From Octopus vulgaris (taxonomy: Eukaryota), in the NCBI GenBank assembly GCA_951406725.2, contig OX597832.1, positions 57,474,001 through 57,538,000 of the forward strand: a stretch of 64,000 bases of DNA, read 5' to 3'. Shown piece after piece: positions 9,875 to 63,378 of the stretch. The translations under genes were made by a program, and so were the position numbers. Each line of letters opens with the position of its first letter. Position 1 is the first letter of the stretch. The notes beneath the pieces are model-generated. The model did no database searches, was not told where the DNA came from, and saw only the letters and a program-made list of their open reading frames with translations.

Positions 9875-9915
<41 letters not shown>

Positions 9916-10060
9916 AGACGGGCTTCTTTCAGTTTCCGTCTACCAAATCCACTCACAAGGCTATGGTCAGCCCGAGGGTATAGCAGAGAACACTTGCCCA
10001 AGGTGCCATGCAGTGGGACTGAACCCGAAACCATTTGGTTGGGAAGCTAGCTTCTTACCA
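9462..10060 (-). mobile_element. Family C SINE with a family D element nested in its internal microsatellite
   Basis: 3' half 9462-9660 and 5' half 9916-10060 on -, family D fragment 9725-9860 on + between them; another 5' half at 10120-10280. Confidence 0.75.
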
Positions 10061-10581
10061 TACGATTTAGATGTATTTCTCCATTTTCTTATCTTGTATA
10101 TATATATGTATATATACATTGGGCCTCTTTCAGTTTCCATCAACCATTTCCACTCACAAGGCTTTGGTTGGCCTGAGGCTATAGCAGAGCACACTTCCCC
10201 AAGGTGCCATACATTGGGACTGAATCCGGATCCATGTGGTTGGGTAGCAGGCTTATTACCTCACACCCACTCCTGCATCTATAATGGTAGCCGTGTTTCA
10301 ACAGAAATATGGTAACAAAACGGTTAGAGTGATCTAAATAAACATTCCGTCAGAATTGCTTGTTAATTTATGTTCCAAATACTAGGTTAGTATTTTAGTA
10401 AATTCTTCACAATCTAAAAAATTTATTGAAACAAAAGTAGTAATTTTTCAAAGAAATATGGTAATGGAAGAGTTACAATGGTAATGCTTGTGTAAATAGA
10501 ACAGCAGACAACTCAGCCATGACCAACAATACTGACAAAAGGAAATAATAAAGCAACAATAAATAAAGTATACACCACAAT

Positions 10582-13117: not shown

Positions 13118-14276
13118 CTAACCCTTTGGTTACCAACCTGGCTGAAACTAGTTCTGGCTCTGTAGTATAAATGTCTTGTTTTCATAAGTTTTGAATTAAA
13201 ATCATCCACCAAACCTTAGTCACAATTTATGTTCCTAACACCAACTTAATGATAACCAGGTTATTTTACTAAATTGTTTGTTATATTTAAAATTAATTGA
13301 AAGAAATACAGAGCATCTCAACAGAAATATGGTAACAGAAGGTGTAAAATATATAATAGAGAAACAATTCTTAACCCTTTCAATATCAACCTCGCTGAAA
13401 CCAGTTCTGTAGTCTAAATGTCTTGTTTTCAAAAGTTTTGAATTAAAATCTTCCACCAAACCTTAGTAACAATTTATGTTCCTAACACTAGCTTAATGAT
13501 AACTAAGTTAGAAATATGGTAACAAAAGGCTTAAAATATATAATAGAGAAACAATTCTTAACCCTTTCGATATCAACCTCGCTGAAACCAGCTCTGTAGT
13601 ATAAATGTTTTGTTTTCAAATGTTCTGAATTAAAATCTTCTGCTAAACCTTAGTCACAATTTATGTCTCTAACACTAGCTTAGTGATAACTAAGTTATTT
13701 TACTAAATTCTTTGTTATATTTAAAATTAATTGAAAGAAACACAGAGCATCTCAACAGAAATATGGTAACAAAAGGCTTAAAATATATAATAGAGAAACA
13801 ATTCTTAACCCTTTTGATATCAACTTCGCTGAAACCAGCTCTGGCTCTGTAGTATGAATGTCTTGTTTTCAAATGTTCTGAATAAAATCTTCTACTAAAC
13901 CTTAGTCACAATTTATGTCTCTAACACTAGCTTAGTGATAACTAAGTTATTTTACTAAATTATTTGTTATATTTAAAATTAATTGAAATAAACACAGAGC
14001 ATCTCAACAGAAATATAGTGACAAAAGGCTTAAAATATATAATAGAGAAACAATTCTTAACCCATTTGATACAAACCTGTTTGAAACCTGCTCTGTAGTA
14101 CAAATGTCTTGTTTTCATAAGTTTTGAATTAAAATCTTCCACCAAACCTTAGTCACAATTTATGTTCCTAACACTAGCTTAATGATAAGCAAGTTCTTTT
14201 ACTAAATTCTTTGTTATATTTAAAATTAATTGAAAGAAACACAGAGCTTCTCAACAGAAATATGGTAATGAAAGGG
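13118..14276 (+). mobile_element. Tandem array of five piggyBac-type MITEs with 23-bp spacers
   Basis: Units start (T)TAACCC at ~13118, 13371, 13558, 13805, 14057 and end in variants of AAAGG[G/C]TTAA; spacer AATATATAATAGAGAAACAATTC; copy 2 has an internal deletion. Confidence 0.9.
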
Positions 14277-24332: not shown

Positions 24333-24850
24333 TTAACCTTTTGCTACTCAAACCGACCATATCTGGCACTGGAGGCACATGGCCTAGTGGTTAGAGCAGC
24401 AGACTCACGGTCGAGAGATCACAGGTTCGAATTTCAGACCGGTCAATGTGTATGTTTATGAGCGAAACACCCAAGCTCCACGCAGCTCCAGCAGAAGGTA
24501 ATGGCGAACTTCTGCTGACTCTTTCGCCACAACTTTCTCTCTCTTTTCTCCTGCATCTTGCAGTTCACCTGCGATGGACCGGCGTCCCATCCAGGTGGGG
24601 AACCTATACGCCAAGAAACTGGGACACCGGCCCTTATAAGCCAGGCATGGCTTGAGAAGGAACAAACAACAACAACAATATCTGGCACTAATAGTTTACC
24701 TGCTTAATTTTCAAACTGACCAGATCCAGCCTCTCACACCTACCCTACAATGTCATTCTAAAAATAAACAATCACATCATTAAAATATCAAAGCTATGAG
24801 ATAATGCAGGCTTGATTCAAAACAAGGTGAATAAATTAGCATTAAATTTG
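24333..24850 (+). mobile_element. piggyBac-type MITE (second family) interrupted by a SINE
   Basis: TTAACCTTTT start; body matches the intact copy at 38020-38233; right end missing. Confidence 0.75.
24371..24677 (+). mobile_element. Full-length family A SINE (V-domain-like tail) with 12-bp TSD
   Basis: A box TGGCCTAGTGG, B box GGTTCGAATTTC, CCTGCGATGGACCGGCGTCCCATCCAGG, (AAC)n tail; TSD ATATCTGGCACT at 24359-24370 and 24678-24689; second copy 46351-46637. Confidence 0.92.
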
Positions 24851-43782: not shown

Positions 43783-44250
43783 TTAACCCCTTCTTTACTG
43801 TATTTATTTTGAGATGCTCCGTGTTTCTTTCAATTAATTTTAAATATAACAAAGAATTTAGTAAAATAACTTAGTTATCATTGAGCTAGTGTTAGGAAAA
43901 TAAATTGTGACTAAGGTTTGGTGGAAGAATTTAATTCAAAAACATGAAAACAAGACATTTGTACACAGAGCTAGAGGCAGTTTCAGCCGAGTTGGTAACA
44001 GAAGGGTTAAGAATTGTCTTTCTATTATATGTTTTAACCCTTTTGTTCCCATATTTCTGTTGAGATGCTCTGTGGTTCTTTCATTTAATTTAAAATATAG
44101 CAAATCATTTAGTAAAAGAACTTAGTTATCATTAAGCTAGTGTCAGGAACATAAATTGTGACTAAGTTTTGGTGGAAGATTTTAACTGAAAACAAGACAT
44201 TTTTACTACAGAGCCAGAGGTGGTTTCAGACAGGTTGGCAACGAAAGTGA
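43783..44250 (-). mobile_element. Dimer of piggyBac-type MITEs, inverted relative to 13118-14276
   Basis: TTAACCCC...GAAGGGTTAA (43783-44010), 23-bp spacer, then TTAACCC at 44034. Confidence 0.9.
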
Positions 44251-46986: not shown

Positions 46987-47229
46987 CGTGTGTGTGTTTG
47001 TGTTTGTCACCCACCATTACTTGACAACCAATGTTGGTTTATTTGCACTCCCATTACTTAGCGACTTGGCAAAAAGGGTTTGATAGAATAAATACTACTT
47101 TTTTTTTTAATTCTGAGACTGATCAAAATAACAGAATGATGGGATGGCCACAATCAGGAGGCCTTTGGATGCAGGTTTTGTATGTAAGGGTTTGCTTTAT
47201 ATTTACATAAAGACTTAGGTCTCCCGTGA

Positions 47230-47502
47230 GCTACTAGGGCTTATAAAGCTGGAGATTAATCTGGTTTCCGTGGCGATTATGTGAATGAGCTTACAACACT
47301 CCCTTCCCGACTGGGATCTCAGTCCCTCACAGGATTAACTCCCTGGCTATTGTTGGAACTCATTTACAGTCAAGTGGACTGACGTGATGTGAAATCAAGT
47401 GTTTTGCTCAAGAACGGAATGTAGCACCGAGTCTAGGAATTGAAACCACAATCTTACAATCATAAGAGCAGCACTGTAAACACTTAGGCCCTGTGTCTTC
47501 AC
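47230..47502 (-). mobile_element. Decayed V-domain-like SINE, apparent founder of the adjacent satellite
   Basis: Body GGTTTCCGTGGCG...GGGATCTCAGTCCCTCACAGG...CTCATTTACAG continues into a head (47385-47502) homologous to the satellite unit. Confidence 0.7.
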
Positions 47503-50500
47503 ATTTATATAAAAACCGGATTAAATTCTGTCTGTTTGGAGGGTTAATGCATTTCTAAATAGCAGCCTGAGTTGAAATGTTTTGTACAAGAACACAACAC
47601 ACTGTTTAGTCTGAGAATTGAAACTGCAATCTTACAATCATAAGAGCAGCACATGCTTTCACATTTATTTAAAAACCAGATTGAATTCTGTCTGTTGGGA
47701 GAGTTAAAGGATTTCCAAATATCCAAACAGCAACGTGAAATGACATGTTTAAATGTTTTGCTGAAGAACACACTGTAACTGTATACCTGGGAATTGAAAC
47801 CTGATTCTCATGATCATGAGTGCAACACCCTAATTAGGTCTTGTGCCTTCACATTTATATAAAAGCCAGATTAAATTCTGTCTGTTTGGAGAGTTAAAGG
47901 ATTTCCAAATAGCAGCATGTGATGAAATGTTTTGCTGGAGAACACTATGCCATACCCAGCCTGGGAATTGAAACCACAATCTTGCAATCATTAGAGAAGC
48001 ACTGTAACCACTTAGGCCATGTGCCTGTGCATTTATTTAAAAACCAGATTAAATTCTGTCTGTTTGGAGAGTTAAAGGATTTCCAAATAGCAGCATGTGA
48101 TGAAATGTTTTGCTTGAGAACACTATGCCATACCCAGCCCAGGAACTGAAACCACAATCTTGCAATCATTAGAGAAGCACTGTAACCACTTAGGCCATGT
48201 GCCTCCACATTTATTTAAAAACCAGATTAAATTCTGTCTGTTTGGAGAGTTAAAGGATTTCCAAATAGCAGCATGTGATGAAATGTTTTGCTTGAGAACA
48301 CTATGCCATACCCAGCCTGGGAATTGAAACCACAATCTTGCAATCATTAGAGAAGCACTGTAACCACTTAGGCCATGTGCCTCCACATTTATTTAAAAAC
48401 CAGATTAAATTCTGTCTGTTTGGAGAGTTAAAGGATTTCCAAATAGCAGCATGTGATGAAATGTTTTGCTTGAGAATACTATGCCATACCCAGCCTGGGA
48501 ATTGAAACCACAATCTTGCAATCATTAGAGAAGCACTGTAACCACTTAGGCCATGTGCCTCCACATTTATTTAAAAACCAGATTAAATTCTGTCTGTTTG
48601 GAGAGTTAAAGGATTTCCAAATAGCAGCATGTGATGAAATGTTTTGCTGGAGAACACTATGCCATACCCAGCCTGGGAATTGAAACCACAATCTTGCAAT
48701 CATTAGAGAAGCACTGTAACCACTTAGGCCATGTGCCTCCACATTTATTTAAAAACCAGATTAAATTCTGTCTGTTTGGAGAGTTAAAGGATTTCCAAAT
48801 AGCAGCATGTGATGAAATGTTTTGCTTGAGAACACTATGCCATACCCAGCCTGGGAATTGAAACCACAATCTTGCAATCATTAGAGAAGCACTGTAACCA
48901 CTTAGGCCATGTGCCTCCACATTTATTTAAAAACCAGATTAAATTCTGTCTGTTTGGAGAGTTAAAGGATTTCCAAATAGCAGCATGTGATGAAATGTTT
49001 TGCTTGAGAACACTATGCCATACCCAGCCTGGGAATTGAAACCACAATCTTGCAATCATTAGAGAAGCACTGTAACCACTTAGGCCATGTGCCTCCACAT
49101 TTATTTAAAAACCAGATTAAATTCTGTCTGTTTGGAGAGTTAAAGGATTTCCAAATAGCAGCATGTGATGAAATGTTTTGCTTGAGAACACTATGCCATA
49201 CCCAGCCTGGGAATTGAAACCACAATCTTGCAATCATTAGAGAAGCACTGTAACCACTTAGGCCATGTGCCTCCACATTTATTTAAAAACCAGATTAAAT
49301 TCTGTCTGTTTGGAGAGTTAAAGGATTTCCAAATAGCAGCATGTGATGAAATGTTTTGCTTGAGAACACTATGCCATACCCAGCCTGGGAATTGAAACCA
49401 CAATCTTGCAATCATTAGAGAAGCACTGTAACCACTTAGGCCATGTGCCTCCACATTTATTTAAAAACCAGATTAAATTCTGTCTGTTTGGAGAGTTAAA
49501 GGATTTCCAAATAGCAGCATGTGATGAAATGTTTTGCTTGAGAACACTATGCCATACCCAGCCTGGGAATTGAAACCACAATCTTGCAATCATTAGAGAA
49601 GCACTGTAACCACTTAGGCCATGTGCCTCCACATTTATTTAAAAACCAGATTAAATTCTGTCTGTTTGGAGAGTTAAAGGATTTCCAAATAGCAGCATGT
49701 GATGAAATGTTTTGCTTGAGAACACTATGCCATACCCAGCCTGGGAATTGAAACCACAATCTTGCAATCATTAGAGAAGCACTGTAACCACTTAGGCCAT
49801 GTGCCTCCACATTTATTTAAAAACCAGATTAAATTCTGTCTGTTTGGAGAGTTAAAGGATTTCCAAATAGCAGCATGTGATGAAATGTTTTGCTTGAGAA
49901 CACTATGCCATACCCAGCCTGGGAATTGAAACCACAATCTTGCAATCATTAGAGAGGCACTGTAACCACTTAGGCCATGTGCCTGCACATTTATTTAAAA
50001 ACCAGATTAAATTCTGTCAGTTTGGAGAGTTAAAGGATTCCCAAATAGCAGCATGTGATGATATGTTTTGCTGGAGAACACTATGCCATACCCAGCCTGG
50101 GAATTGAAACCACAATCTTGCAATCATTAGAGAAGCACTGTAACCACTTAGGCCATGTGCCTCCACATTTATTTAAAAACCAGATTAAATTCTGTCTGTT
50201 TGGAGAGTTAAAGGATTTCCAAATAGCAGCATGTGATGAAATGTTTTGCTTGAGAACACTATGCCATACCCAGCCTGGGAATTGAAACCACAATCTTGCA
50301 ATCATTAGAGAAGCACTGTAACCACTTAGGCCATGTGCCTCCACATTTATTTAAAAACCAGATTAAATTCTGTCTGTTTGGAGAGTTAAAGGATTTCCAA
50401 ATAGCAGCATGTGATGAAATGTTTTGCTTGAGAACACTATGCCATACCCAGCCTGGGAATTGAAACCACAATCTTGCAATCATTAGAGAAGCACTGTAAC

Positions 50501-51195
50501 CACTTAGGCCATGTGCCTGCACATTTATTTAAAAACCAGATTAAATTCTGTCAGTTTGGAGAGTTAAAGGATTTCCAAATAGCAGCATGTGATGAAATGT
50601 TTTGCTTGAGAACACTATGCCATACCCAGCCTGGGAATTGAAACCACAATCTTGCAATCATTAGAGAAGCACTGTAACCACTTAGGCCATGTGCCTCCAC
50701 ATTTATTTAAAAACCAGATTAAATTCTGTCTGTTTGGAGAGTTAAAGGATTTCCAAATAGCAGCATGTGATGAAATGTTTTGCTTGAGAACACTATGCCA
50801 TACCCAGCCTGGGAATTGAAACCACAATCTTGCAATCATTAGAGAGGCACTGTAACCACTTAGGCCATGTGCCTGCACATTTATTTAAAAACCAGATTAA
50901 ATTCTGTCAGTTTGGAGAGTTAAAGGATTCCCAAATAGCAGCATGTGATGATATGTTTTGCTGGAGAACACTATGCCATACCCAGCCTGGGAATTGAAAC
51001 CACAATCTTGCAATCATTAGAGAAGCACTGTAACCACTTAGGCCATGTACCTGCACATTTATTTAAAAACCAGATTAAGTTCTGTCAGTTTGGAGAGTTA
51101 AAAGATTCCCAAATTGCAATGTGAGTTATTGCCCGGGTCTGGTAATTGAACCCACAATCCTATGATCTGTTTGCGGAGTTAATGGCTTTCCAAAC
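47385..51195 (-). repeat. 178-bp satellite derived from a SINE head; ~18 near-identical units plus 3-4 diverged edge units
   Basis: CTATGCCATACC recurs every 178 bp from 47945 to 50971; minus unit is GGAGGCACATGGCCTAAGTGG...GGTTTCAATTCC...GTGTTCTCAAGCAAAACA plus ~65 bp of flank. Confidence 0.98.
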
Positions 51196-52181
51196 AAATG
51201 TTTAAATTTGAATATGAAAATACCATTTCCATTTGGTTAATCACAGTAAGTTTGTTATATTTGTATTCTGTAGAAAATTACCAAGAAAGTTCTGTTCCCG
51301 ATTCTATTTTCACTTCATCAGTCACACCTAGATGAGCTAATTAAAAATAATTACCTTGAAGGGAGGTGGAAAGAAAAGTGTGAATGTCACAACTTCTTAT
51401 TTACTTTACCCTCCACCCTCTGCACGCACTTCTATTAATATGAGACATTCTGAGATATTTTCCTTATTTATACGGAAGAAATAATTATCATGGGGAAAAA
51501 AAAATAAAAAGAACACAAAAACCGTCATCAATATCTTTTGGACTGCATTCTATTTATTATTTTTTACACAAGTTTTATGCCAACCCTTTCCTTTTATCTC
51601 CTCTCGAATCCTTTTGTAACTATTTTAAAAATATTTTCCATCAGTTTTCATAAAGGAGAGAAAGTAAAAAAAAAACTAGAATGTTGTTTCCCCTACCATG
51701 GCTTATTTTAGAGGGGGAGGGCAATGAAGTGGTGACTCACATTCCACTCCTCTTTCTTTCCTCCTATCACCTCATTCTCTCCCCCTATTGCACTCTCTCG
51801 CCCTTTTGCCCCCCCCCTTCTCCCCCTTTTTCATTTTAGTTTTCTAATACAATGTTATTGTCTAATATTTAGGGATCCTTGTTGTAGAGATTTCTGTTCC
51901 TTTTGTTTATATTTTGTTTTTATTTTGTGTCCCCTTTTTCTTCCCCTCACCTTTTGACCCTTTCTTTATTATTAGAGGGAATCCTAATTTTTTTTTCTTA
52001 ACTCTACAATAATCATCTCTAATAATTGTAATATTAACAATCTGTTCTAATTCTAGCACAATGCCTGCAATTGTGAGGGAGTGGTGGTGGGGGTGATTAT
52101 ATCAACCCCCAATACATGACAGGTACTTTATTATACTGACATCAAATGGAGGAGAAGCCAAGTCAGGTGCAGCAGGATTTC

Positions 52182-53947: not shown

Positions 53948-55227
53948 TTTTAGCATTCAGATTACTCAGAGGAGTTTAATGCCTGTCTGTTCATATTGGT
54001 TCGAATTAACCATTGCATTATCTTGTAGCTTTGAGATTTTGATGAGATGATTGTTTATTTTCAGAATGGTACTGTAGGGTGGATGAGATAAGTTCAGTCT
54101 GGTCAGTTTGAATATAAAACTTAGAATATATAGGCCAGATAATGTAACTAAATAAAGACCTTCTTCAGTTATGACTGACCATGGAATTGCACCTAGAAGG
54201 TTCCCCTCCAAGGCACAAGTCCGTGCAAGGTTGTTTACAGAAGACCAGCAGTCACCCATGCATACCAGCCTCCCTTCTCCACACCCTTATATGTACATAG
54301 GGTAAGGGGTAAAGACCCATTTTGGTCATGACTGACCATGGAATTGCACCTAGAAGGTTCCCCTCCAAAACACAAGTCCTGGCAATGTTGTTTACAGAAG
54401 ACCAGCAGTCAGCCATACATACCATCCTCCCTTCTCCACACCATTATATGTACATAGGGTAAGGGGTAAAGACCCATTTCGGTCATGACTAACCATGGAA
54501 TTGCACCTAGAAGGTTCCCCTCCAAAACACAAGTCCTGGCAATGTTGTTTACAGAAGACCAGCAGTCAGCCATACATACCATCCTCCCTTCTCCACACCA
54601 TTATATGTACATAGGGTAAGGGGTAAAGACCCATTTCGGTCATGAATGGCCACAGGATTACTCCTAGAAAGTTCCCCTCCAAGGCACAAGTCTGGGCAAG
54701 GTTGTTTATGGAAGACCAGCAGTCACCCATGCATACCAGCCTCCCCTCTCAATGCCACTGATGTTATCCAAAGGAAAGACAAAGGCTGATACAGCTTGGC
54801 ACCAGTGATGTTGCAACTCATTACTACAGCTGAGTGAACTGGAGCAATGTGAAATGAAGTGTCTTGCTCAAGAACACAACACACAGCCCTGTCCAGGAAT
54901 CGAACTCACTACCTTATGATTTCAAGCCTAACATTCTAACCACTGAGCCATGTACCTTTACTGGGTCAGATATGGGCTGTTTAAATGCTAAAGGGTTAAC
55001 CCATGAGAATTCAGATTACTCTATCAAGTGGAATGCTTATTTATTCGCCTTGTTTTCAGTTAATCATGAATTATCTCATAGCAATGACATTTCGATGATG
55101 CAATCATTTATTTTTAGAATGACATTGTATGTAGGGTAGGTGTGAGAGGTCAGATCTGGCCAGTTTGAACATAAAACATGTAGAATATTTGGGCTGAATA
55201 TGGCTGGTTTAAGTACCACAGGGTTAA
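53948..55227 (-). mobile_element. Two piggyBac-type MITEs sharing TTAA at 54996-54999; the first carries a family B SINE
   Basis: AAAGGG-TTAA-CCC junction; final CAGGGTTAA; SINE at ~54143-54961 with degenerate TSD TATCTGACCCA/TATCTGGCCTA (minus). Confidence 0.85.
54155..54755 (-). repeat. Four tandem ~157-bp copies of the family B SINE 3' segment
   Basis: GT[C/T]ATGA...CCTAGAA[G/A]GTTCCCCTCC starts at ~54168, 54325, 54482, 54639. Confidence 0.9.
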
Positions 55228-62961: not shown

Positions 62962-63378
62962 GTGGCAAGCTGGCAGAACCGTTAGCATGCTGGGCAAAAT
63001 GCGTAGCCGTATTTCGTTTGCCGTTACGTTCTGAGTTCAAATTCCGCCAAGGTCGACTTTGCCTTTCGTCCTTTCGGGGTCAATAAATTAAGTACCAGTT
63101 TCGCACTGGGGTCGATGTAATCGGCTTAATTCGTTTGTCTGTCCTTGTTTGTCCCCTCTGTGTTTAACCCCTTGTGGGTAGTAAAGAAATAGGTAATTTG
63201 TCTGCCGTTATGTTCTGAGTTCAAATTCCGCCATGGTCGACTTTGCCTTTCATCCTTTCGGGGTCGATAAATTAAGTACCAGTTTTGCACTGGGGTCGAT
63301 GTAATCGGCTTAATTCATTTGTCTGTCCTTGTTTGTCCTCTCTACATTTAGCCCGTTGTGGGTAATAAAAAGAAACAA
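62962..63378 (+). mobile_element. Nin/Deu-like SINE with tandemly duplicated body
   Basis: GTTCTGAGTTCAAATTCCGCCA.GGTCGACTTTGCCTTTC.TCCTTTCGGGGTC.ATAAATTAAGTACCAG occurs twice ~183 bp apart; CpG-rich. Confidence 0.85.

Follow-up and report, generated by a model that had tools for sequence, protein, structure and literature searches.

A probable SINE-derived satellite and its described relatives

Satellite DNA built from parts of short interspersed elements (SINEs) has been described in squamate reptiles, where SINE-derived satellites (sSats), among them sSat3Gja2 and sSat3Ppi2, have the same architecture as the tandem array that we report here from Octopus vulgaris (Vassetzky et al., 2023; PMC10702118). 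According to the array descriptions in that paper, sSat units are shorter than the SINE and fall within ~70–290 nt, they can consist of the 5′ part of the SINE plus ~30 nt of unknown origin, a longer terminal unit runs to the SINE end, units are more uniform in longer arrays, and copy number varies between orthologous loci (PMC10702118). The octopus array, which lies on the minus strand of a 64,000-nt stretch of contig OX597832.1 (assembly GCA_951406725.2; hereafter the window, in whose numbering all coordinates are given), resembles the sSats in these points. Its head-to-tail units, of which a SINE-derived satellite has at least four, are shorter than the SINE (178 versus ~291 bp) and related in sequence to a SINE family dispersed in that genome (80% identity to the parent head), and a full SINE (47502–47212) ends the array, behind two old units. 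The array differs from the sSats in its invertebrate host, in being apparently a single locus, with a flank block that is at single-copy depth in both DNA runs aligned, and in that its extra DNA could be traced to the SINE's own upstream flank, ending in a run of five T (T5). An sSat unit can be present at many loci, and a subtelomeric bias is described for the abundant sSats alone (PMC10702118).

Direct tandem arrays of tRNA-derived SINE sequence, with 4–15 units, are also reported from another invertebrate, the bivalve S. broughtonii; as defined in that study they rest on SINE hits of at least 150 bp, whereas the octopus unit is a 3′-truncated head joined to unique flank (PMC11481361). In amphibians, OAX/satellite I (Xenopus), PolIII/TAN (newt), Rana/polIII and Hy/polIII are described as tandem repeats with a tRNA-like promoter for RNA polymerase III (Pol III), as in the octopus array, and PolIII/TAN is reported to be transcribed in vitro (PMC10702118, PMC12054243). 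By these accounts, Rana/polIII makes up as much as 10% of its genome and OAX is an abundant transcribed family, whereas the octopus array is not abundant in either of the two DNA runs; amphibian units are given as ~200–360 nt or longer, while the octopus array leaves only 8–10 nt between a predicted terminator and the next start. The human tRNA-gene variable-number tandem repeat at 1q23.3 is described as having units of 7.3 kb that contain real tRNA genes together with a CTCF site, in contrast to the 178-bp decayed SINE head seen here (PMC4041453). We found no report of this array, or of cephalopod SINE-derived satellites, in the open-access literature searched. On the reading favored here, the locus extends SINE-derived satellites beyond reptiles and bivalves; its history is legible on the spot, from the parent SINE and its target-site duplication through old decayed units to a recent expansion, and it could serve as a length-polymorphic marker.

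A first-pass annotation had read the array as ~18 tandem Pol III transcription units, or alternatively as a boundary element. We favor, with a probability of roughly 75%, a young and variable SINE-derived satellite, which likely grew by ordinary local duplication and is probably not under selection as a group of Pol III genes. Some unit may still be active with Pol III.

Anatomy and history of the array

The young part of the array consists of 18 gap-free units of 178 bp on the minus strand (47853–51056), as had been claimed, with unit starts at 51056, 50878 and so on to 48030. The units have a mean pairwise identity of 98.5%; 10 of them are distinct, and each departs from the majority unit at 0–6 sites. 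TRF called 18.5 copies at 47834–51118, and the array itself is far beyond chance. Its extent had been given as 47385–51195, which includes more than the young units, since 47385–47852 holds two old units and the parent head. Each young unit comprises ~113 bp of SINE head and body start followed by a flank block of ~65 bp (block F) that ends in T5 plus 8 further bases. The variants are ordered and free of indels: a unit with four variants is followed by one with two at 51056/50878, and the same pair recurs at 50166/49988, five units on, a pattern in keeping with genuine slippage or unequal exchange.

The A-box motif is exact in 18/18 young units (for example 48375–48364, minus strand, one base longer than in dispersed heads), in agreement with the first-pass annotation. 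The B-like motif (for example 48331–48320, minus strand) and T5 (for example 48221–48217, minus strand, ending 8–10 nt before the next unit start) had both been assigned to every unit; each is present in 17/18, the last unit having T4 in place of T5. Apart from this terminal T run, no run of four or more T (T4+) occurs inside any young unit, again as claimed, while the GGAGG said to open each unit is found in only 13 of the 18. At this same position, unit starts in the window (48030–48027 and 51056–51053, minus strand) read GTGC, GCAC or GTGG, and a contig from another sequencing run (X7, see below) reads GCGC; it appears that a CpG at the unit start was lost by decay of one strand in some copies and of the other strand in others.

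The unit had been described as a SINE head joined to ~65 bp of the DNA upstream of it, with this flank supplying T5, and the description holds. A profile built from seven local heads recovered 16 heads or head fragments in the window (17 of the 18 young units set aside). In two runs taken as DNA, head positions reach a summed depth of 10^3–10^5, while the 65-bp block stays at the depth of the flanks (X5: 21–45, flanks 21–25; X7: ~6–9 over most of the block, flanks 7), indicating a large dispersed family as the source of the head and local flanking DNA as the source of the block. Single-copy depth of the block in both runs, at 88% likeness, suggests one locus. An origin of the block as the tail of some other SINE family was rejected, given its single-copy depth and the lack of dispersed copies elsewhere in the window, where a single 23-bp match was the only one. 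A regular association of heads with upstream T runs was likewise rejected, as T4+ lies within 80 nt upstream of only one of nine independent full heads. Among 65-nt stretches of the window's non-repetitive DNA, 37% hold T4+ and 14% hold T5 or longer, and in 10% (1724 of 16544 overlapping stretches) the first T4 falls within the last 25 nt. The position of T5 is one event copied many times, with odds of roughly 10–14% in window DNA.

The array is bordered by older material on both sides. At its upstream end lies a leading copy of the flank block, F0 (51057–51121, minus strand; 5/59 differences from the young block F), preceded by a degenerate remnant unit (approximately 51122–51200, minus strand) with a partial block F, a deletion through the A box, a B-box region and a shortened body. 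At the other end are old unit 1 (47663–47852, minus strand; 190 bp, 72% identical to the young unit, its A box missing 4–5 bases) and old unit 2 (47503–47662, minus strand; 160 bp, 81% identical to the young unit over 150 bp, its A box deleted), such that the A box is lost or broken in 3/3 older duplicates. The older heads are 18–31% diverged at non-CpG columns. In a tree of 12 heads the four local ones grouped together at a support of only 88/92, which is a hint of common origin and no more. The middle of the head of old unit 1 (47786–47833, minus strand) matches many dispersed copies in the aligned runs and lacks the derived bases that unite the parent and old unit 2 with the young units; it was possibly converted by a dispersed SINE copy.

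Beyond old unit 2 lies the full-length parent, a tRNA-type SINE of ~291 bp whose head is 80% identical to that of the young unit. The first-pass annotation had recognized this SINE but placed it at 47230–47502; its limits are most likely 47502–47212 (minus strand), with an 11-bp target-site duplication (TSD). The likely 5′ TSD (47503–47513, minus strand) is identical at 10 of 11 positions to the likely 3′ TSD (47211–47201, minus strand), and ~0.03 such matches are expected by chance in the stretch searched. The likely 5′ TSD overlaps the T5 at 47515–47511 by three T, which would make the predicted terminator part of an AT-rich landing site. The central segment of the parent is also found in other SINEs of the window, and the element may be a CORE-SINE, a type with a central CORE domain behind the tRNA head.

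Contigs from four sequencing runs, of the 24 listed with matches, were aligned to 47100–48120. Two of these (X5 and X7) were taken as DNA and two (X11 and X13) were guessed to be RNA, and joints in the aligned contigs that came from dispersed SINE copies at 88% likeness were set aside. X7 is labelled as a different organism from X5, and its flanks agree to within ~0.5%. Its sole contig over the array junction carries bases diagnostic of F0 (48053 and 48061) and continues into a head, at a depth of 6.1 compared with 7.2–7.6 in the flanks; 350 further letters of this contig do not fit the stretch and are probably the upstream flank. A second contig of X7 is unbroken from 47988 to 47437. Together these two contigs point to one young unit and no loop, a result that comes mainly from contig continuity and not from depth. 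In X5 the contig graph branches at 47866–47895 like a loop, whose contigs have a depth of 27–29 against 21–25 in the flanks; among the contigs listed, this roughly suggests about two units per chromosome, nowhere near 18. With one unit in X7 and about two in X5, the 18-fold array looks like a recent and variable expansion atop much older duplications.

We propose the following history. A tRNA-type SINE would first have inserted at an AT-rich site, with the T run falling partly within its TSD. Several ancient rounds of duplication of flank and head would have followed, which left the three duplicates whose A box is broken. A single unit with an intact A box would have multiplied in recent times, with slippage or unequal exchange as the likely mechanism, given that a variant block repeats five units apart and that the number of units in other individuals is one to about two. 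On this view the A box, B-like box and T5 are inherited by-products, and at most some units might be transcribed, weakly and in turns as yeast data would suggest, because TFIIIB bound 10–40 bp upstream of one start would cover the terminator of the previous unit.

Transcription, assembly and boundary readings of the array

The reading that competes best with the one we favor treats the array as a newly formed bank of Pol III templates comparable to OAX, which would produce a discrete ~165-nt RNA in some tissue (e.g., oocytes) in amounts that scale with copy number. Several sequence features agree with it. The A box fits the A-box pattern in 18/18 young units, the B-like box and T5 are each kept in 17/18, and the distance of 32 nt from A-box end to B-box start is within the 30–40 bp of a type 2 Pol III promoter. 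The first T4+ toward the 3′ end is the T5 at unit position 166, with one weak TVT3 motif at position 120. An AT-rich stretch lies near −31/−24 upstream of the unit start, and such a region is reported to aid SINE transcription in mouse (PMC7279448). T5 is described as an efficient terminator for human Pol III in vitro, with leakage in cells (PMC3141230). The amphibian repeats discussed above, one of them reported as transcribed in vitro, provide a precedent for tandem tRNA-like repeats of this kind.

The B box is less favorable to an OAX-like bank. The B-box consensus is GTTCRANNC, from which the young unit departs by one mismatch, a T for the first G, and so is no strict B box; it also has CA where 7/8 dispersed heads have CG. 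The first-pass annotation had called this box non-canonical and attributed this to an extra T. It is indeed off-consensus, but gap-free alignment to other SINE heads identifies the T as a substitution. Four of the eight dispersed heads match the consensus fully, and two carry the same T. In yeast, the first consensus G is listed among the TFIIIC contacts (PMC11724288). The unit contains no CpG, and has TG or CA at 6 of the 9 columns where at least two of the eight dispersed heads have CG. This loss was not taken to indicate gene-body methylation (PMC9476566), because CpG is depleted throughout the window (observed/expected 0.39).

The spacing of the units argues in the same direction. TFIIIB is described as covering 10–40 bp upstream of the start in yeast (PMC5052057), and as the preceding T5 ends only 8–10 nt upstream, the footprint of TFIIIB on the next unit would take in the terminator, and neighboring units would be expected to obstruct each other; a literature search for direct data on interference between tandem Pol III units found none. 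Nor did the predicted unit RNA show a favored fold (z = +1.09; the fold was equalled or bettered in 176 of 200 shuffles). ARAGORN detected 0 tRNA genes, and Rfam gave no tRNA match even at E values up to 10 and no family for the unit, its two chance matches having E values of 1.8 and 6.

None of the 24 runs listed with matches is recorded as RNA, which is no evidence either way on expression; contigs of the two guessed RNA runs, moreover, cannot show transcript ends, strand or level. X11 yielded one locus-specific contig (204 nt, aligned to 47975–47786 with one difference), and among the contigs listed for X13 there was none. The X11 contig crosses the T4 of the last unit, the sole weakened terminator of the array, and runs 67 nt across the junction into old unit 1. 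It does not correspond to the predicted discrete RNA, could be DNA or come from either strand, and neither supports nor excludes a small RNA. Both X11 and X13 have no cover over 48045–48120, but such holes prove nothing, since small RNAs are lost from many libraries.

From the one to about two units in other individuals, the older duplicates without an intact A box, the B box that is off at a TFIIIC-contacted G, the position of the terminator, and an X11 contig (of uncertain strand and origin) that crosses the T run and enters the next unit, we concluded that the claim of ~18 Pol III transcription units or a boundary element is not supported, and we regard an OAX-like template bank as unlikely.

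Some observations weigh against a satellite without a selected role. The amplified unit is the sole duplicate that keeps an A box, the 32-nt spacing, no internal T4 and the AT-rich −31/−24 stretch, and the presence of the B-box T in 2/8 dispersed heads means that it may be tolerated in this lineage. The depths given above for X5 and X7 are contig depths, which are not copy numbers, and the two runs are 2 of the 12 non-RNA runs listed with matches. In addition, the low divergence of the flank block, which holds T5, is not predicted by simple neutral block duplication. Between old copies, the block (47503–47917 and 51057–51121) is ~3 times less diverged than the adjoining SINE heads: across six pairs, the blocks differ at 2–8 of 59 positions and the adjoining heads at 13–20 of 59–77 non-CpG columns (Fisher p = 0.0003–0.03 in 4/6 pairs, which are non-independent). 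Any of three processes could account for this: local gene conversion of the block, constraint on the block, or conversion of the heads by dispersed copies.

Constraint on the T5-bearing block is the best argument for a more specific proposal, in which the chance capture of a SINE promoter and a target-site T run created a self-terminating Pol III mini-gene that is now expanding as a 1-to-18-copy array, a newborn OAX-like satellite with a constrained terminator block. We think this quite unlikely. If it were true, the locus would show the birth of transcribed Pol III satellites such as OAX, and its copy-number alleles would amount to a natural dose experiment, with animals that have different doses of a new 165-nt RNA or a different TFIIIC load at the locus.

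It is very improbable, in our view, that assembly inflated the copy number and that the true locus has one to three young units. Neither aligned DNA run comes near 18 units, as this explanation would have it, but the array has 10 distinct units, ordered variants without indels and a repeated unit pair, all of which fit real duplication better.

Least probable of all is a clustered TFIIIC site serving as a boundary or replication pause and yielding no stable RNA, with pausing having perhaps favored the duplications: TFIIIB and TFIIIC sites are described as stalling polymerases in yeast (PMC5052057), and 10–12 of the 12 bases of the B-like box are kept in all four older copies while neighboring bases are more diverged, but the B box is the most shared part of all dispersed heads, so that one would expect it to be retained, individuals differ greatly in the array, a promoter-less SINE piece nearby was duplicated too, and no gene that could be insulated was found in the frames scanned (150 of the 347 candidate frames, with no Pfam match at curated thresholds).

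Other repeats in the window

The same frame scan left no convincing host gene or coding exon, its four weak Pfam matches lying below the curated cut-offs and being rejected. Approximately a quarter of the window, array region included, is simple or tandem repeat. A second SINE-derived tandem lies 3 kb from the array (54153–54750, minus strand; 157 bp × 3.8) and is built from the promoter-less 3′ part and junction DNA of a SINE whose head is at 54961. A further tandem with 247/187-bp units (13323–14275) derives from a dispersed element that is also present at 43867–44237; its start may be the end of a small DNA transposon. These two tandems indicate that local repeat duplication is common here and needs no Pol III promoter.

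The SINEs at 24369 (plus strand) and 54961 (minus strand) lie directly behind similar upstream sequences, as if they had inserted at the same site of another dispersed repeat. Adjacent direct pairs of other dispersed repeats were also observed, at 63011–63369 (184 bp, 91%) and 9898–10260 (201 bp, 84%), and these may be either duplications or neighboring insertions.

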